Shown: in pieces, positions 14,606 through 47,308 of the stretch
How positions within the stretch are numbered: position 1 is the first letter of the stretch
Layout: each line of letters starts with the position of its first letter
NCBI RefSeq assembly: GCF_000027125.1
Contig: NC_017626.1
Reading direction: 5' to 3' (one strand)
DNA length: 64,000 nt
Source of the DNA: Escherichia coli 042
GTDB lineage: Bacteria > Pseudomonadota > Gammaproteobacteria > Enterobacterales > Enterobacteriaceae
Made by a program: the position numbers and the translations under genes
The notes under the pieces: model-generated
Seen by the model: only the letters and a program-made list of their open reading frames with translations
What the model was told of the DNA's origin: nothing
Databases searched by the model: none

Positions 14606-14617
14606 GTAAATAAATAT

Positions 14618-14641
14618 CCTCCGGCATAGCCGGAGGTTTTT
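14618..14641 (+). terminator. Rho-independent terminator after ynaJ
   Basis: CCTCCGGC-ATA-GCCGGAGG hairpin followed by T5. Confidence 0.5.
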
Positions 14642-15330
14642 CAAATGCGCCTATAAGGCTCTCTTACCAGCCGCGCCCTAACAGGCGCACACGATCTGAC
14701 ATTTGCATCCAACTTCGTTACTTACGGCCCGTAAACGGGCTGCCCGGATAGGGAATCGATAACTGCTCTCCCATTTTATCCTCTTCAAGCTGGTGCTTTA
14801 TGTAATCCTGTATCTTCGCCGTGTTCTTACCCACCGTATCGACGTAATACCCTCTGCACCAGAACTCCCTGTTCCTGTATTTGAATTTCAAATCACCAAA
14901 CTGCTCGTAAAGCATCAGACTGCTTTTCCCTTTCAGATATCCCATAAAGCCTGATACGCTCATTTTGGGCGGGATCTCCACAAGCATATGGATATGATCT
15001 GCACAGCATTCAGCTTCCAGAATCCGTACACTTTTCCACTCACACAGCTTTCTCAAAATACAGCCTATTGCTCTACGCTTCTCTCTGTAGAACACCTGTC
15101 TTCGGTATTTTGGCGCAAATACTATGTGATATTTACAGTTCCATCGGGTGTGCGCTAAGCTCTTTTCGTTCCCCATTGGGACCCCCTTTTGATTTCTTGT
15201 TTGACACTTGCAGTTGCCAGACCGCAAGGTGTTTTAACAAATCAAAAGGGGTTTTAATAACTGGCTCAAAGCTGAAAGCTTTCCGGAACCCCCAGCCTAG
15301 CTGGGGGTTTTCTGTGCACAAAAAATAGGC
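14640..15330 (-). mobile_element. IS200-like insertion sequence (IS200/IS605 family); boundaries approximate
   Basis: About 690 bp between ynaJ and uspE terminators containing a Y1 transposase gene and a terminal hairpin CCCCCAGCCTAGCTGGGGG (about 15287..15305). Confidence 0.55.
14718..15176 (-). CDS. tnpA: IS200-type Y1 (HuH) transposase TnpA
   Basis: Start at internal Met with RBS: MGNEKSLAHTRWNCKYHIVFAPKYRRQVFY..., 152 aa; HuH motif HIHML and catalytic Tyr region. Confidence 0.8.
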   Translation of the reverse strand: MGNEKSLAHTRWNCKYHIVFAPKYRRQVFYREKRRAIGCILRKLCEWKSVRILEAECCADHIHMLVEIPPKMSVSGFMGYLKGKSSLMLYEQFGDLKFKYRNREFWCRGYYVDTVGKNTAKIQDYIKHQLEEDKMGEQLSIPYPGSPFTGRK

Positions 15331-22435: not shown

Positions 22436-23344
22436 ATGGCTTTTCAGGTAAAAATTCATCAAATTCGGGCTTTTGTTGAAGTGGCTCGTCAGGGCAGCAT
22501 TCGCGGAGCGAGCCGAATGTTGAATATGTCGCAACCGGCACTGAGTAAATCTATTCAGGAGCTGGAAGAAGGGTTGGCGGCACAACTCTTTTTTCGCCGT
22601 AGTAAAGGCGTGACGTTAACTGATGCCGGTGAAAGTTTTTATCAGCACGCCAGTCTTATTCTTGAAGAGCTGCGCGCAGCGCAAGAGGATATTCGCCAAC
22701 GACAAGGGCAACTGGCAGGGCAAATTAATATCGGCATGGGGGCCAGTATTTCCCGCAGTCTGATGCCAGCTGTCATATCTCGTTTTCATCAGCAGCATCC
22801 GCAGGTAAAAGTACGCATTATGGAAGGGCAACTGGTATCGATGATTAATGAATTGCGCCAGGGGGAACTGGATTTCACCATCAATACCTATTATCAGGGA
22901 CCCTACGACCACGAATTTACTTTTGAGAAATTACTGGAAAAGCAATTCGCGATCTTTTGCCGCCCGGGACATCCCGCCATTGGTGCCCGTTCGATCAAAC
23001 AGTTACTGGACTACAGCTGGACAATGCCGACGCCACACGGCAGCTACTACAAACACTTGAGTGAATTGCTTGACGATCAGGCGCAAACGCCACAGGTCGG
23101 CGTAGTCTGCGAGACGTTCTCAGCCTGTATCAGTCTGGTGGCAAAAAGCGATTTTCTCAGCATACTACCTGAAGAAATGGGCTGCGATCCCTTGCACGGA
23201 CAGGGGCTGGTGATGTTGCCGGTTAGCGAAATTTTACCGAAAGCGACCTATTATTTGATTCAGCGGCGTGATAGTCGCCAGACACCACTGACCGCGTCAT
23301 TAATCACGCAATTTCGGCGAGAATGCGGCTATCTGCAAAGTTAA
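22436..23344 (+). CDS. abgR: LysR-family regulator AbgR
   Basis: 302 aa, N-terminal HTH, divergent from abgA. Confidence 0.85.
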   Translation: MAFQVKIHQIRAFVEVARQGSIRGASRMLNMSQPALSKSIQELEEGLAAQLFFRRSKGVTLTDAGESFYQHASLILEELRAAQEDIRQRQGQLAGQINIGMGASISRSLMPAVISRFHQQHPQVKVRIMEGQLVSMINELRQGELDFTINTYYQGPYDHEFTFEKLLEKQFAIFCRPGHPAIGARSIKQLLDYSWTMPTPHGSYYKHLSELLDDQAQTPQVGVVCETFSACISLVAKSDFLSILPEEMGCDPLHGQGLVMLPVSEILPKATYYLIQRRDSRQTPLTASLITQFRRECGYLQS

Positions 23345-23351
23345 AACTGCA

Positions 23352-23446
23352 TAAAAAAATAGAGTCTGTCGACATCCGCCAGACTCTACAGTACACACAG
23401 CAGTGCATCCGCGTCTTAAATCCGGCATGGTCTCCTCTGCGCCGGT
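23352..23446 (-). ncRNA. mcaS: Small regulatory RNA McaS (IsrA)
   Basis: Reverse complement reads ACCGGCGCAGAGGAGACCATGCCGGATTTAAGACGCGGATGCACTGCTGTGTGTACTGTAGAGTCTGGCGGATGTCGACAGACTCTATTTTTTT, matching remembered McaS, in abgR-smrA intergenic region with intrinsic terminator. Confidence 0.7.
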
Positions 23447-23673
23447 GACTGTGTTATAACGGTTTTAACCTTTAGTTGCCAATTTTCTTCAGTGACAGAT
23501 TTCACGAAAATATAAGTTACATTATTAATATCGTGAATGAATAATCATGCATAAGCATTTTGCTTAAAATATCGGCAATATTTGGAACTTATTACTGGAA
23601 ATTTGGGTAATACGTTGTTGGACCGACCCGGTCTGGTTATCATATCGCGCTCTTAATTGCGGGAGGATGTAAC

Positions 23674-24237
23674 ATGAACCTTGACGACAAATCGCTGTTT
23701 CTTGACGCCATGGAAGATGTCCAGCCGCTGAAACGTGCTACAGATGTCCACTGGCATCCAACGCGTAACCAACGTGCGCCGCAGCGTATCGACACGCTGC
23801 AACTTGATAATTTCCTCACCACTGGATTTCTCGACATCATCCCGCTAAGTCAGCCGCTGGAGTTTCGGCGGGAAGGGTTGCAACATGGGGTGCTGGATAA
23901 GCTGCGCAGTGGTAAATATCCGCAACAGGCGAGCCTGAATCTTTTGCGCCAGCCGGTGGAAGAGTGCCGCAAAATGATGTTCAGTTTCATTCAACAAGCC
24001 ATGGCGGATGGTTTGCGTAATGTGCTGATTATTCATGGTAAAGGGCGGGAAGATAAATCGCATGCCAATATTGTCCGCAGCTATGTGGCGCGCTGGCTGA
24101 CCGAATTTGATGATGTTCAGGCATATTGCACCGCGCTACCGCATCATGGCGGCAGCGGGGCGTGTTACGTCGCACTACGTAAAACGGCGCAGGCGAAGCA
24201 AGAAAACTGGGAGCGCCACGCTAAGCGCAGTCGTTGA
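23674..24237 (+). CDS. smrA: Smr-domain DNA endonuclease SmrA
   Basis: 187 aa, C-terminal Smr domain (LIIHGKG). Confidence 0.85.
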   Translation: MNLDDKSLFLDAMEDVQPLKRATDVHWHPTRNQRAPQRIDTLQLDNFLTTGFLDIIPLSQPLEFRREGLQHGVLDKLRSGKYPQQASLNLLRQPVEECRKMMFSFIQQAMADGLRNVLIIHGKGREDKSHANIVRSYVARWLTEFDDVQAYCTALPHHGGSGACYVALRKTAQAKQENWERHAKRSR

Positions 24238-24257: not shown

Positions 24258-25490
24258 TTATGCCGCCAGCACGCGGTTGCGTCCATCATTTTTCGCCCGA
24301 TACAAAGCATCATCAACGCGTTTAAACAGTTCATCGATGCTTTCATTTCCTTCGTGATGCGCCACACCAATGCTGACGGTAAAGCGTGGTAAGCCCGAAA
24401 TACTCACTTTTGCCACGCTTACGCGGATAGTTTCAGCCAGCGAAAGCGCGGTATCCAGTGGGGTTCTTGGTAGCAATAAGACAAACTCTTCGCCTCCCCA
24501 ACGAAACACCAAATCGCCTTTGCGAGCGCAACTTTCGAGGGGGCGGGCGAGGGCGCATAACACCTCATCACCTTTAGAATGCCCATAGAGATCGTTAATG
24601 TGTTTAAAACGATCGGTGTCGATGAGCAATAAGCTGTAATCCTGAGCGATGGCGAGGTGCTGCATTTGGCCTGGCTCGGTAATGTGGTAAAACTGTCGCC
24701 GATTCAGTAATCCGGTCATCGCGTCATGGTGGGCAGCATGTTCCAGCTGCTCCTCCAGCCGTTTTTGCTCAGTAATATCATGCACAATACATAACATGAG
24801 CTTGTCGCCATAAATTTCAATCGGCCCGGCATAGGTCTGCACATGACGAGTCGAACCATCCGCCAGTTTATGAACAAAATTCAAAGGCTTATGGCCACCG
24901 GGTAAATGCGAAATTTCATGCATGATAGGCATGACGCGTCGCCCGAGCATATTTATTTCCCAGGTATGTTTCTGGCACATCGTTTCATGGTTATAACCAT
25001 AGAAATTGAGCGCGGCGAGGTTAGCATCGACGATTTGTCCATCTCGTGACGGGTCAATCAACAACATTGGTGCAGAGTTAGTCAGAAAAAAGCGCGCATA
25101 AAAACCTTGTTTTTTGCGCTGATAATTTGCCGAGCGACTGGCTTTTAAACCCAGCGTTGCCGGTGCTTCGATACCTTCGAAAATAATCACCGGTTCTGCT
25201 TCTGTCAGCTTTCGCAAAACAAGCCGACAGCTCAATGCTGTTTCCTCTTCATTGCGCTGAACGGTGAGGATTTCGATAATATCGTGTTGGTTTTGCAGAT
25301 CGGAGAGGTATTTTGGCAGTTCTTTTTGTGAGGAGACGGAATAGGGACCGGTTCGTAGCTGACTAAACGTGAGGTCTTGCATCAACAGTCGCGCCGCGCT
25401 ATTGGCATAAATTAACTGTTCCTCAAAGGGCGAAACGATCCAGACAGGACTGGTGAGTAAGTCCAGGGTATTGAAGTTGTGCGTAATCAT
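24258..25490 (-). CDS. dgcM: Diguanylate cyclase DgcM (PAS-PAS-GGDEF)
   Basis: 410 aa from MITHNFNTLDLL...; GGEEF motif present (RWGGEEFVLLL). Confidence 0.85.
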   Translation of the reverse strand: MITHNFNTLDLLTSPVWIVSPFEEQLIYANSAARLLMQDLTFSQLRTGPYSVSSQKELPKYLSDLQNQHDIIEILTVQRNEEETALSCRLVLRKLTEAEPVIIFEGIEAPATLGLKASRSANYQRKKQGFYARFFLTNSAPMLLIDPSRDGQIVDANLAALNFYGYNHETMCQKHTWEINMLGRRVMPIMHEISHLPGGHKPLNFVHKLADGSTRHVQTYAGPIEIYGDKLMLCIVHDITEQKRLEEQLEHAAHHDAMTGLLNRRQFYHITEPGQMQHLAIAQDYSLLLIDTDRFKHINDLYGHSKGDEVLCALARPLESCARKGDLVFRWGGEEFVLLLPRTPLDTALSLAETIRVSVAKVSISGLPRFTVSIGVAHHEGNESIDELFKRVDDALYRAKNDGRNRVLAA

Positions 25491-25723
25491 TGAGATCCCG
25501 TTATTTTTATCAATTTTTGTTGCTATCCGATCGCAAAAAAGCCACGTCATATGATCAGATAATTCTGATAATGATAGACGCTATTTAACACTTCACACGG
25601 TTTGTATACGGAAAAGCATTTTGCTTTTTGTATTCAATTTAGACAGAATTTTATTAATCATTTCAGGGTAATGGGGTGATGAGATGTTGCGTAACAGGGC
25701 CAGAAGGCTAGACTACAAAATAA

Positions 25724-26823: not shown

Positions 26824-26945
26824 GCAGGTGAATGCAACGTCAAGCGATGGGCGTTGCGCTCCATATTGTCTTACTTCCTTTTTTGAATTACTGCATAGCA
26901 CAATTGATTCGTACGACGCCGACTTTGATGAGTCGGCTTTTTTTT
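26824..26945 (+). ncRNA. fnrS: FNR-activated small RNA FnrS
   Basis: Sequence GCAGGTGAATGCAACGTCAAGCGATGGGCG... ending in hairpin GCCGACTTTGATGAGTCGGC plus T-run; position between zntB and dbpA. Confidence 0.8.
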
Positions 26946-31246: not shown

Positions 31247-31435
31247 TCACGACGACTGAAGTTTCTCGCAATTAAAATTTATCAGTTTTACTTTCTGCTC
31301 TCTGGAAACGCCTGCTTCTTTTTTACCTGAGAGCATTTTTTCGCATTCTGATTTGGTTAATTTTGTTTTTGAGTACCTTGTCCAGTTAGTAGGAGTGCCA
31401 CCTTCCTTTTCAATAGTGGCGGTAATTTTATACAT
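31247..31435 (-). CDS. ydaC: Rac prophage small protein YdaC-like
   Basis: Start chosen at MYKITATIEK... preceded by GGAGG RBS; start uncertain (in-frame upstream Mets). Confidence 0.55.
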   Translation of the reverse strand: MYKITATIEKEGGTPTNWTRYSKTKLTKSECEKMLSGKKEAGVSREQKVKLINFNCEKLQSS

Positions 31436-42334: not shown

Positions 42335-43021
42335 ATGACCCCAATAAAAATATTTATGACTATTGCTGATTTCAAACGGCCTAAATTGGAGCTCCCAAAC
42401 GGGGCAAACAAACTACTACTGCACTCTTGCTGTGCTCCATGTTCCGGTGAAGTGATGGAGGCGCTTCAGGCCTCGGGAATCGACTATACCATCTTTTTCT
42501 ACAACCCGAACATTCATCCTCAGAAAGAGTATTTAATTCGTAAGGATGAGAATATTCGCTTTGCTGAACAACACGGCGTGCCATTTATTGATGCTGATTA
42601 CGACACAGACAACTGGTTTGAACGTGCCAAAGGAATGGAATGGGAGCCCGAGAGGGGGATCCGTTGTACCATGTGTTTTGACATGCGTTTTGAGCGGACA
42701 GCGCTGTACGCTGCTGAAAATGGTTTCAGTGTGATCAGCAGTTCACTGGGCATTTCACGCTGGAAAAATATGCAGCAGGTTAACGACTGTGGGCGGCGAG
42801 CCGTCGCGCATTATCCGGGCATGGTGTACTGGGATTATAACTGGCGCAAGCAGGGCGGCTCGTCCCGCATGATTGAAATCAGCAAGCGCGAAAAATTCTA
42901 TCAGCAGGAATATTGTGGCTGTGTGTATTCTCTGCGCGATACCAATCTACACCGCAAATCTCAGGGACGCCCTCTTATCAAAATTGGTCAACTCCACTAC
43001 GGTAAAGAAGAGAAGGAGTGA
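42335..43021 (+). CDS. DUF208 / epoxyqueuosine reductase QueH-like protein (putative Fe-S enzyme)
   Basis: 228 aa with Cys motifs [14 protein letters not shown] and EYCGCVYS, as remembered for the QueH family. Confidence 0.55.
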
Positions 43022-43258
43022 TTTTATGGAGCACCTTTCTTATTGATTTCATATTGGCGAGGTAGCGGGAGTTAAGTAAAATTGCTGCGGGTGCTTGAGG
43101 CTATCTGCCTCAGGCATGAACACCAAAAGGCAGATAGAGAAAAGCCCCAGTTAACATTACGCGTCCTGCAAGACGCTTAACATTAATCTGAGGCTCAATC
43201 TATGCTGAACACATGTAGGTTAGCCTCTTACGTGCCGAAAGGCAAGGAGAAGCAGGCT

Positions 43259-43414
43259 ATGAAGCAGCAAAAGGCGATGTTAATCGCCCTGATCGTCATC
43301 TGTTTAACCGTCATAGTGACGGCACTGGTAACGAGGAAAGACCTCTGCGAGGTACGAATCCGAACCGGGCAGACGGAGGTCGCTGTCTTCACAGCTTACG
43401 AACCTGAGGAGTAA
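43259..43414 (+). CDS. hokD: Hok-family membrane toxin (type I toxin)
   Basis: 51 aa MKQQKAMLIALIVICLTVIVTALVTRKDLCEVRIRTGQTEVAVFTAYEPEE matches remembered HokD/RelF; in-frame upstream extension from 43202. Confidence 0.8.
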   Translation: MKQQKAMLIALIVICLTVIVTALVTRKDLCEVRIRTGQTEVAVFTAYEPEE

Positions 43415-43880
43415 GAGACCGGGCGAGGGAGAAATCCCTCGCCACCTCTGATGTATTATGCATCCTCAACGCACCCACACTTAACCAGTTTTGGCGAGTT
43501 TATTTTATCTGTAAATATTTTTATAAAAATAATGCCCACGCACAGCATAAAACAAAAAGTATTACAGATAAAAAAGGAGCGTAATGTGCAGATTTGTTGT
43601 TTTCCATATTTACTCACCTTAATATGATTGATCTTGATAGGATTGTTATTTCAGTGGTTTTCAAATGAGATATTATGGTGATCTGGTAGATTTGCATAAC
43701 ATTAAAATTTAATTTGTTTAACCGCTTTTAATAATAAGCGTTGTTTTTATCCCGGCAATCTGTTGTTTGGTTTTTATTCCATTAAGGTGGGGACTTTACA
43801 CTGGAGCCAGTTTATTTATACTTCATACGTCAGCCTGAACAACTGGCATCTGCTGCACTGCGCCATCGAGAGATTGAGAA

Positions 43881-44480
43881 ATGGCGCATATACAACTGGT
43901 CAAACAAACTTCTTCTGGTTTACTTCTCCCGGCGACGCCGGAGAGTTGCGATTTTCTGCATCAAATCAAAATAGGTGAGTGGATACACGCAGACTTTAAG
44001 CGTGTGCGTAACTACGCATTCCACAAGCGTTTTTTCAAACTCCTGCAACTGGGATTCGATTACTGGACTCCGGTCGGTGGGGCGATCACACCTCGCGAAC
44101 GAGAAATGGTGTTCGGCTTCGTTGATTACCTGTGTGAATCAGTAGGCAGGGAACATACGCCAGCTCTGAGTGATGCCGCGGAACAATATCTGAATACCGT
44201 TGCGACACGCAGAACCCGGGATATGGCATTGCTCAAATCATTTGACGCTTTCCGCGAGTGGGTAACCATTCAGGCCGGATTTTACACCGAGCATTTTTAT
44301 CCTGATGGTAGTCGTGGGCGTCGGGCGAAATCCATCGCGTTTGCGAATATGGACGAAACCGAGTTTCAGCAGGTTTATAAATCTGTACTGAATGTGCTGT
44401 GGAACTGGATTCTGTTCCGTAAATTTTCCTCTCCGGAACAAGTCGAAAATGTGGCCGCGCAGCTACTGGAGTTTGCGTAA
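43881..44480 (+). CDS. Hypothetical nin-region phage protein
   Basis: 199 aa, immediately upstream of YbcO-like gene with stop/start overlap. Confidence 0.5.
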   Translation: MAHIQLVKQTSSGLLLPATPESCDFLHQIKIGEWIHADFKRVRNYAFHKRFFKLLQLGFDYWTPVGGAITPREREMVFGFVDYLCESVGREHTPALSDAAEQYLNTVATRRTRDMALLKSFDAFREWVTIQAGFYTEHFYPDGSRGRRAKSIAFANMDETEFQQVYKSVLNVLWNWILFRKFSSPEQVENVAAQLLEFA

Positions 44481-44770
44481 TGGTGGATTTACGTAAAGCG
44501 GCGCGGGGCCAGATGTGCCAGGTCAGAATCCCTGGCTACTGCAATCACAATCCCGAAACTTCTGTGCTGGCGCATTACAGGTTGGCAGGGACGTGCGGAA
44601 CAGCGACAAAACCACACGATATGCAGGCAGCGATTGCCTGTAACTCATGCCACGATTTAATCGACGGGCGGGTAAAAACCAGCGATTACACCAAAGAAGA
44701 ATTACGCCTGATGCATGCAGAAGGTGTTTTTCGCACGCAAGAAATCTGGAGAAAGGAAGGTTATTTATGA
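44480..44770 (+). CDS. YbcO-like protein (DUF1364, Cys-rich putative nuclease)
   Basis: 96 aa MVDLRKAARGQMCQVRIPGYCNHNPETSVLAHYRLAGTCGT...IACNSCHDLIDGR, close to remembered DLP12 YbcO. Confidence 0.75.
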   Translation: MVDLRKAARGQMCQVRIPGYCNHNPETSVLAHYRLAGTCGTATKPHDMQAAIACNSCHDLIDGRVKTSDYTKEELRLMHAEGVFRTQEIWRKEGYL

Positions 44771-45303
44771 TTTACCCAACAAATACAGGCAAAAGCGGGG
44801 AACACCTTCGTCTCACCACGCTGGAAAGTGTCTGGATTCAGGGAAAACTGCGCATGTGGGGGCGCTGGTCGTATATTGGCGGCGGTAAGACGGGGAATAT
44901 GTTTAACCAGTTGCTGGCGTCAAAAAAATTGACGAAAACAGCCATCAATGAAGCCCTGCGCAGAATGAAAAAAGCGGGAATAGAGAAAGCTGAGCTGGAA
45001 GCGTTTTTGCGAGAGATGATCAACGGCAAGCAAAAGAGCTGGCTGGCGCATTGTACTGATGCAGAGGCACTAAAAATTGATAGTGTTATAGGTGAAGTTC
45101 TGGCGGATCATCCAGGACTACTAAATGTCCTGAGTCAGCGTTATGTGGGGCGAGGGATGAGTAAGAGAAGGATGGCCGAGTTATTAAACGAACAGTACCC
45201 AGAGTGGGCGTTGATTACATGCCGACGTCGTGTTGATCAGTGGTTGCGTGTTGCTGAGTTCATTTTGTATTCACCTATGAGAGAAGCGTTCGATTATGCT
45301 TAA
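44767..45303 (+). CDS. Putative late-gene antiterminator Q
   Basis: 178 aa; last nin-region gene, directly upstream of terminator hairpin, tRNAs and lysis cassette; family assignment from memory only. Confidence 0.5.
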   Translation: MIYPTNTGKSGEHLRLTTLESVWIQGKLRMWGRWSYIGGGKTGNMFNQLLASKKLTKTAINEALRRMKKAGIEKAELEAFLREMINGKQKSWLAHCTDAEALKIDSVIGEVLADHPGLLNVLSQRYVGRGMSKRRMAELLNEQYPEWALITCRRRVDQWLRVAEFILYSPMREAFDYA

Positions 45304-45397
45304 AAAATCATTGCAAAATGAGCCACAAACTGCTTCAATTTCGGTACGCTTCGCATAGCTGTATCGCGAGGCAAATTAAGCGCATGAACTTTAATAC

Positions 45398-45425
45398 AAC
45401 CCGCCATTGAGCGGGTTTTGTTGTT
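45398..45425 (+). terminator. Rho-independent terminator downstream of Q (candidate tR')
   Basis: ACCCGC-CATTGA-GCGGGT hairpin followed by TTTGTTGTTT. Confidence 0.45.
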
Positions 45426-45665
45426 TCTGTGGCGTGATATCAGAAACGACATTTAATAATCGCCTTCAAAATAAATTTGTTTATACATTGTCATGTATAT
45501 TTTAAGTGAAAGTGAATTATTCACATAAAATAAAAACACATAAATAAATTTACATAACTTGACGCAAAGTGTTGTTGCGATTGGAATATTAAATCGTATC
45601 ATCGAAAACGGTTCTGAGGGGGAACTCTTCTTTGCTCGGTGATATCGCTCCCCTGAAGAACCAAT

Positions 45666-45741
<76 letters not shown>

Positions 45742-45744
45742 TAT

Positions 45745-45819
<75 letters not shown>

Positions 45820-46182
45820 GCATTTGAAACAAGCCTTATTGTATTGCGGCACTGGCGTATTTTTTTATTACGTGGGAGCAGGTTGTTTTGAAAAAGCATT
45901 CTGTTCTCTGGCTATGATTTGAGGCCGGGTGTAGCCTCAGTGCTGATTTTTTACGGCAGCAGAATGGTGCATTATCGGTGGAGATTTTGTATTTCCTGGC
46001 AGGGTCGGTGATGCATCATTCTGGTGTTGTAAAAGCACCGCAGAGGCGTTCCTCAGGGCGAGGGTGGTTTAAAGAGTCGGTTTAGCGGGAAACCACAGTA
46101 TCCATACGGCACGGAATACTTCGGGAGGCACCCGACGCCTCGGTTTTATAACAATTAAATAATTCATCCCTTAATTGACCAA

Positions 46183-46207
46183 CCGCCGTATCAGGCGGTT
46201 TTTTTTA
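46183..46207 (+). terminator. Rho-independent terminator in the tRNA-holin spacer
   Basis: CCGCC-GTATCA-GGCGG hairpin followed by T9. Confidence 0.5.
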
Positions 46208-46595
46208 TTCCTTTCTCAGGACAAAAAAATACACGAGCATCCAGGAATACTCGTGGGACAACGTCCTTTGGATAGCAATTTGCGAGAGGGTGAAAAGTAG
46301 CGCGGTCGTCGGATTAAGACCGCGGGACAAAGTCCATGAAGAAGAATAAGTATCGGTCTCCTTCCGGAGACGAGTTGATATTACTAAGCTTTAAAAATGG
46401 TTTAAATCCTCAGATCAACCTTAATTTCAGATAAGGTTTATTTCATTTTCTCCGCGTCACATCCGACGCACATCACATCAGATAACACCACACAAAAGGC
46501 ATCTGCGGGTGTCTTTGACGGGGTGTTTTTTACGGGCCGCTGGTGGCCATTTTTTGTTTCCATTACACAGCGCCCGCATCTGCGAGGTGGGGGTT

Positions 46596-46811
46596 ATGAA
46601 ATCCATGGATAAGTTAACAACGGGTGTCGCCTATGGCACCTCCGCAGGCAGTGCTGGCTACTGGTTTTTACAGCTGCTCGATAAAGTCACGCCCTCACAG
46701 TGGGCAGCAATAGGTGTGCTGGGTAGCTTGGTATTTGGCCTGCTGACGTACCTGACAAACCTTTATTTCAAGATTAAAGAAGATAAGCGCAAGGCTGCGA
46801 GAGGTGAATAA
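46596..46811 (+). CDS. S: Class II pinholin (phage 21 S21-like) with dual-start motif
   Basis: 71 aa [71 protein letters not shown]; Met1/Met4 dual start; two TM domains. Confidence 0.85.
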
Positions 46812-47308
46812 TGCCTCCATCATTACGAAAAGCCGTTGCTGCTGCTATTGGTGGCGGAGCAATTGCTATAGCATCAGTGTTAATCACTGGCCCAAGTGGT
46901 AACGATGGTCTGGAAGGTGTCAGCTACATACCATACAAAGATATTGTTGGTGTATGGACTGTATGTCACGGGCATACAGGAAAAGACATCATGCTCGGTA
47001 AAACGTATACCAAAGCAGAATGCAAAGCCCTCCTGAATAAAGACCTTGCCACGGTCGCCAGACAAATTAACCCGTACATAAAAGTTGATATACCGGAAAC
47101 AACGCGCGGCGCTCTTTACTCGTTCGTTTACAACGTGGGCGCTGGCAATTTCAGAACATCGACGCTTCTTCGCAAAATAAACCAGGGCGATATCAAAGGC
47201 GCATGTGATCAGCTACGTCGCTGGACATATGCTGGCGGTAAGCAATGGAAAGGTCTCATGACTCGTCGTGAGATTGAGCGTGAAATCTGTTTGTGGGGTC
47301 AGCAATGA
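46811..47308 (+). CDS. R: SAR (signal-anchor-release) endolysin, lysozyme family (R21-like)
   Basis: 165 aa; Gly/Ala-rich N-terminal SAR domain ([20 protein letters not shown]) then lysozyme-like domain; TAATG overlap with holin. Confidence 0.85.

Follow-up and report, generated by a model that had tools for sequence, protein, structure and literature searches.

mcaS, an established small RNA gene, in the abgR-smrA spacer of Escherichia coli 042

The element on the minus strand between abgR and smrA in Escherichia coli 042 is, with a probability of about 0.97, mcaS, the gene of a trans-acting small RNA (sRNA) of ~95 nt with a Rho-independent end, which would be made from its own CRP-activated sigma-70 promoter and act via Hfq and CsrA. 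It lies in a window of 64,000 nt, by which is meant the whole stretch of DNA that was analysed. An Rfam cmscan search of the whole window (Rfam 15) placed the family RF00115 (McaS/IsrA) at 23351..23446 on the minus strand with 117.0 bits (E 3.9e-21), about three times the gathering score of 42 bits, and the match covered model positions 1-96 of 96 with no truncation. A preliminary description made from the letters of the sequence had already proposed McaS here; the Rfam scan, set beforehand as the test that could refute this proposal through a missing McaS match, returned the match, and the identity stands. No evidence contradicting the identification was met in the analysis. Family membership, gene boundaries, complementarity to csgD and the conservation of promoter elements, terminator and GGA motifs are directly supported, and expression of McaS, its binding to Hfq and CsrA and its regulatory outcomes in this strain may be expected from the literature. 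The feature is an already known, well-studied E. coli gene at its usual place and is otherwise ordinary. The gene and its neighbours are as follows.

22436..23344, plus strand: abgR (302 aa), matching NF007307 (AbgR-type LysR equivalog) with 630.8 bits, convergent with mcaS
23351..23446, minus strand: McaS (IsrA/IS061) small RNA gene, from the full-length RF00115 match and the mapping of K-12 mcaS
23674..24237, plus strand: smrA (ydaL; 187 aa), matching NF033154 (SmrA) with 253.3 bits, divergent from mcaS

The predicted transcript, ACCGGCGCAGAGGAGACCAUGCCGGAUUUAAGACGCGGAUGCACUGCUGUGUGUACUGUAGAGUCUGGCGGAUGUCGACAGACUCUAUUUUUUUAU, is read on the minus strand from 23446 down to 23351, with +1 at 23446 and the 3' end within a U tract at 23351-23353. 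The K-12 MG1655 ncRNA mcaS (b4426; 1405658..1405751, minus strand) maps to 23353..23446 of the window when the mapping is anchored on the abgR end common to both. Three sets of boundaries thus stand side by side, with an identical 5' end and with 3' ends at 23352 (preliminary description), 23353 (K-12) and 23351 (Rfam), all inside the U tail; the span of about 95 nt first suggested, 23352..23446, therefore shares its 5' end with K-12 mcaS and is within 1 nt of it at the 3' end. Its placement in the abgR-smrA spacer held as well, both flanking genes being identified by NCBIfam models and by the same abgR-mcaS-smrA order in K-12 MG1655. Compared with K-12 McaS (b4426; RF00115), the window agrees in locus, strand, length, promoter, terminator, GGA motifs and csgD seed and differs by the substitution A18C and by one substitution in the upstream spacer.

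To the left of abgR-mcaS-smrA lies abgA and to the right the diguanylate cyclase gene dgcM. The latter (ydaM; 24258..25550, minus strand) begins just past smrA as seen from mcaS, and its product DgcM (YdaM) is said to act on csgD transcription (PMC3634460), so that two regulators of the curli master regulator csgD stand close together, which is known biology. RefSeq carried no annotation under the McaS match in the 46 E. coli records inspected, K-12 MG1655 apart, and the entry under the match was "none" in all 30 listed E. coli rows annotated by PGAP; elsewhere abgR and smrA were the sole features shown. A scan based on gene tables would therefore see an unexplained conserved spacer at this place in such records. 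Beyond correct annotation, the importance of the identification is little.

The spacer between mcaS and smrA, 227 bp long, is shared by the promoters of the two divergent genes. Upstream of the McaS +1, the following elements were recognised.

23453..23458, minus strand: predicted -10 hexamer TATAAC (-12..-7), its TATA invariant in 15 species
23477..23482, minus strand: predicted -35 hexamer TTGGCA (-36..-31), separated by an 18-nt spacer, its TGG invariant
23491..23506, minus strand: CRP-like site CGTGAaatctgTCACT (-60..-45, centre -52.5), of the form CGTGA-N6-TCACT

In an alignment of the upstream regions of 15 homologues from several genera, the TGG of the -35 and the TATA of the -10 hexamer were invariant, and the half-sites GTGA-N6-TCAC were kept in 12 of the 15 regions while the sequence around them drifts. 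The classical activating positions of CRP are -41.5, -61.5 and -71.5, and the centre of the mcaS site at -52.5 is presumably an unusual one outside these positions. The conserved CRP-like half-sites fit the reported activation of mcaS by cAMP-CRP (PMC3634460; PMC8313858). Generic consensus scans for promoters and terminators missed both the promoter and the terminator of mcaS. The promoter probably escaped because the scan demands a T at position 6 of the -10 element and TATAAC ends in C, and the terminator probably because the scan requires an uninterrupted stem and this one has an interior G/A mismatch. These misses probably reflect the limits of rigid scan rules and are not evidence against mcaS.

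In the Rfam structure, as in the published three-stem model, the RNA has three hairpins; these are listed here with its four GGA motifs, its seed for csgD and the only position at which it departs from K-12 McaS.

23422..23445, minus strand: stem-loop 1 (nt 2-25), with a CCGGCG/UGCCGG stem and a 12-nt loop holding the 5'-most GGA, from the Rfam consensus structure
23395..23414, minus strand: stem-loop 2 (nt 33-52), from the Rfam structure
23359..23389, minus strand: hairpin of the Rho-independent terminator (nt 58-88), its loop holding a GGA, dG -15.8 kcal/mol
23352..23358, minus strand: U7 tail of the terminator, T88-T93 being invariant
23433..23435, minus strand: GGA motif 1 (nt 12-14), in the loop of stem-loop 1
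23421..23423, minus strand: GGA motif 2 (nt 24-26), present in all Escherichia sequences and in Citrobacter amalonaticus S646, the other relatives having no GGA at these exact positions
23408..23410, minus strand: GGA motif 3 (nt 37-39), adjoining the csgD seed and invariant in all relatives
23375..23377, minus strand: GGA motif 4 (nt 70-72), in the terminator loop and invariant
23392..23407, minus strand: csgD seed (nt 40-55, UGCACUGCUGUGUGUA), 16 contiguous Watson-Crick pairs, inside the nearly invariant nt 37-93
23429, minus strand: nt 18, in the loop of stem-loop 1, C here and A in K-12, from the pairwise alignment

The intrinsic terminator proposed from the sequence was recovered as a hairpin of 10 bp, a 1x1 mismatch and 2 bp, followed by UUUUUUU. 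A U tail of this kind behind a hairpin is the usual 3' Hfq-binding element of such sRNAs, and the 3' hairpin and U tail of McaS form a candidate element for this role. The GGA motifs begin at nt 12, 24, 37 and 70, and their number agrees with the four described for McaS (PMC10729762), two of which are reported to bind CsrA.

The stop codon of abgR (TAA, 23342..23344) lies 6-8 nt from the 3' end of McaS, and the terminator hairpin is nearly palindromic and hence also forms on the plus strand, which together lend some plausibility to the reading that the hairpin is merely the terminator or 3' UTR of convergent abgR and that there is no separate RNA gene. On the plus strand, however, an A run stands before the hairpin and CAGUACAC, with no U tract, comes after it. 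All 96 nt fit the covariance model, well beyond the hairpin alone, and where abgR is missing or reduced to a remnant, in other species as in some E. coli lineages, the element persists together with its promoter and conserved 5' part. Given the missing plus-strand U tract and an element that outlasts the loss of abgR, this reading was rejected and is considered extremely improbable. Because the abgR stop is so near and the plus strand has no U tract there, a read-through transcript of abgR would be fully antisense to McaS.

Coding by the same region was judged equally improbable and was likewise rejected. Open reading frames do exist mechanically, namely one of 42 aa at 23300..23428 on the minus strand, whose AUG falls on sRNA nt 19-21 (23426-23428), a nested one of 34 aa at 23304..23408 on the same strand, and one of 41 aa at 23323..23448 on the plus strand; a Shine-Dalgarno-like GAGGAG just upstream of the AUG of the 42-aa frame would suit a small protein. 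The minus-strand frame nevertheless crosses the terminator and reaches no stop codon before the RNA 3' end. In the alignment its AUG is confined to the window and K-12, and AGG stands at that place in the other E. coli alleles. A variable 5' end next to an invariant hairpin and seed is an RNA-like pattern with nothing codon-like in it, and the plus-strand frame overlaps the end of abgR and found no support. The earlier suggestion that no protein-coding feature explains the element is thus borne out, since the minus-strand frames beneath it run through the terminator.

The 96-nt McaS sequence has a match in 5367 of 5426 complete E. coli genomes. A scan of species-representative genomes with the terminator-loop pattern yielded 15 related loci, from E. 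albertii, E. whittamii, other Escherichia, Citrobacter amalonaticus, Pseudescherichia vulneris and other Enterobacteriaceae, and every one of the 15 gave a full-length RF00115 match above threshold (68-109 bits). Sequence alignments showed that nt 37-93 are almost invariant and the 5' third is variable, the loop of stem-loop 1 being the most variable part of McaS across functional-looking homologues. The whole Rfam structure was 86-87% paired, against 33-45% in controls with slid partners. The terminator helix was 100% paired in 18 sequences, and three of its pairs showed compensatory changes; stem-loop 2 had 84% of its cells paired across 17-18 sequences, with one-sided changes only. Every Escherichia sequence forms stem-loop 1, pair 7-20 of which shows compensatory changes. 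The column counts of stem-loop 1 reach only 58-65% because its register differs in distant genera, and a custom covariance model (R1) with realignment for this register barely changed them. In 13 of the 15 relatives smrA stands beside mcaS and divergent from it, the other two loci ending before smrA is visible; abgR is present in only some of them. With the smrA linkage steady and abgR patchy, the conserved unit is therefore mcaS-smrA.

Several E. coli genomes carry other forms of the locus. A second mcaS haplotype is seen as a class of 90-95% identity comprising 1303 genomes. In E. coli ZJ3920 (locus L021, 621..1152), the gene immediately upstream of mcaS encodes an AraC-family regulator and ends ~70 nt before +1; after mcaS come a frameshifted LysR (abgR) remnant and then ogt, so that the abg operon is gone there. 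The allele of E. coli E69 (L009) is of the ZJ3920 type; seven of its nine differences from the window crowd into nt 6-20 of a highly diverged stem-loop 1 region, and it retains the stem, the GGA and the remaining RNA. In E. coli FDAARGOS_943 (L022, 691..900) the McaS match stops at about nt 71, and a transposase gene of the IS4 family comes next; since the sequence diverges inside the terminator loop, the terminator is destroyed, and the locus looks like a natural disruption of mcaS.

Over its 16 nt, the csgD seed is exactly complementary to positions -96..-81 of the K-12 csgD 5' UTR; the pairing was computed against K-12 csgD, the strain's own copy lying outside the window. Only 1 of 300 dinucleotide-shuffled sRNAs equalled or bettered the energy of the McaS-csgD duplex. 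For the 5' UTR of flhD, in which McaS is reported to pair with two regions, a crude search found a duplex energy no better than that of 84 of 300 shuffles and no informative complementary run with McaS; the published pairing is imperfect and can escape such a search.

McaS shares features with two kinds of known sRNA. Like the dedicated CsrA-sponge sRNAs CsrB and CsrC, it binds CsrA via GGA motifs shown in loops, and it has been described as a weaker CsrA sponge of the same kind (PMC10729762). It differs from them in having four such motifs where CsrB has 22, in an additional Hfq-mediated base-pairing with mRNAs that is not known for CsrB or CsrC, and in lying outside their families, its Rfam match being to RF00115 only. 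RprA, GcvB, OmrA/B, RydC and RybB resemble McaS in targeting the csgD leader far upstream of the ribosome-binding site in an Hfq-dependent manner, whereas their sequences, loci and transcriptional inputs are unrelated to it. Within this csgD-leader group, control by CRP sets McaS apart, and no other member is known to titrate CsrA as well.

Pairwise alignment of the window with K-12 McaS gave 95 identical positions of 96. Over the 341 nt from the end of abgR to the smrA start codon there are two differences from K-12, nt 18 and a position in the upstream spacer ~110 nt before +1. The identical 96 nt are carried by at most 362 of the 5367 genomes. In ViennaRNA predictions, C18 gains a pair with G41, and an extended helix then joins the 5' end to the seed region, with a predicted minimum free energy of -33.1 kcal/mol for the window allele as against -30.2 for the canonical two-hairpin fold. 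The predicted probability of stem-loop 1 falls from 0.87 in K-12 to 0.24 in the window, that of the alternative fold rises from 0.12 to 0.76, and the probability that the first G of GGA motif 1 is unpaired drops from 0.71 to 0.12. The sequence in the window can still form both 5' hairpins, though this is not its predicted minimum-energy fold. In K-12 the two folds are nearly isoenergetic, within 0.5 kcal/mol (-30.7 vs -30.2 kcal/mol).

These figures, together with the minority of genomes that carry the identical 96 nt, raise the thought that the A18C allele has decayed or is functionally altered, in that the extended fold would bury GGA motif 1 and the csgD seed and might weaken CsrA binding or csgD pairing. 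Such an effect is rated unlikely, because the fold difference of ~3 kcal/mol is near the error of nearest-neighbour models and because Hfq and CsrA remodel sRNAs in vivo. The near-equal energies of the two folds in K-12 point the same way, as does the variability of the stem-loop 1 loop in homologues that look functional. Across the relatives the alternative helix is 67.5% paired, compared with 58-65% for stem-loop 1 and 84% for stem-loop 2; as far as aligned sequences can tell, the comparative counts favour neither 5' fold, the alternative helix being no better and no worse than the canonical hairpins. The shift of the fold by C18, a purely computational result, is the one mildly new point. 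If the altered-function reading were true, the McaS variant of some E. coli lineages would control curli, PGA and motility more weakly or with a different tuning, and the fold predicted for this allele offers a small lead on how sRNA potency varies in nature.

The window holds further RNA genes and mobile elements. The stretch 14617..15319 (~703 bp) between ynaJ and uspE has no counterpart in K-12 and is a copy of IS200C, tnpA being annotated in identical RefSeq matches. An Rfam match to STnc490 (15186..15309, minus strand, 146 bits) sits at one end of this IS200 and therefore belongs to the insertion sequence rather than marking a separate sRNA gene of the chromosome. The sRNA FnrS (26824..26941, plus strand; RF01796, 134.8 bits) lies downstream of zntB as in K-12 and is a known gene. 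A full-length match to the RalA antitoxin sRNA was found at 31251..31429 on the plus strand (RF02694, 215.4 bits), near which a Rac-type prophage presumably starts. The late region of a lambdoid prophage occupies 42500..47000, where RefSeq matches annotate QueH, DUF1133/1364/1367 proteins and essD; inside it were found a sok antitoxin RNA match (43089..43264, 119.6 bits) and adjacent genes for tRNA-Thr(TGT) and tRNA-Gly(TCC) (45666..45819). Coverage of 80% or more of this 4.5-kb region was reached in only 72 genomes.

The proposed action of McaS has two modes, both of them established in E. coli K-12, and near-identity (99%) suggests that they hold here. The functional claims are drawn from secondary and later papers (PMC6061853, PMC3634460, PMC4098024, PMC4824073). 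In this scheme, minus-strand transcription of mcaS would start at a sigma-70 promoter of its own, which cAMP-CRP would activate under shortage of preferred carbon, and the ~95-nt transcript would end at the Rho-independent terminator. With Hfq, on which McaS action is reported to depend (PMC6061853; PMC4824073), its conserved single-stranded core (nt ~40-55) would pair with the csgD 5' UTR far upstream of the ribosome-binding site, and this pairing would lead to mRNA cleavage and less curli. Pairing with the flhDC leader would increase flagellar synthesis, and McaS has been described as activating flhDC by opening an inhibitory leader structure (PMC3634460). In the other mode, CsrA would be bound by the exposed GGA motifs and thereby titrated off pgaA and other targets, resulting in more of the polysaccharide PGA (poly-beta-1,6-N-acetylglucosamine); binding of CsrA through exposed GGA motifs with relief of pgaA repression has been reported (PMC4098024; PMC10729762). 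McaS also co-purifies with RNA polymerase core, S1, ProQ and PNPase (PMC4824073). McaS is a textbook dual-function sRNA: by Hfq-dependent pairing and CsrA titration it ties the choice between motility and biofilm to carbon status.
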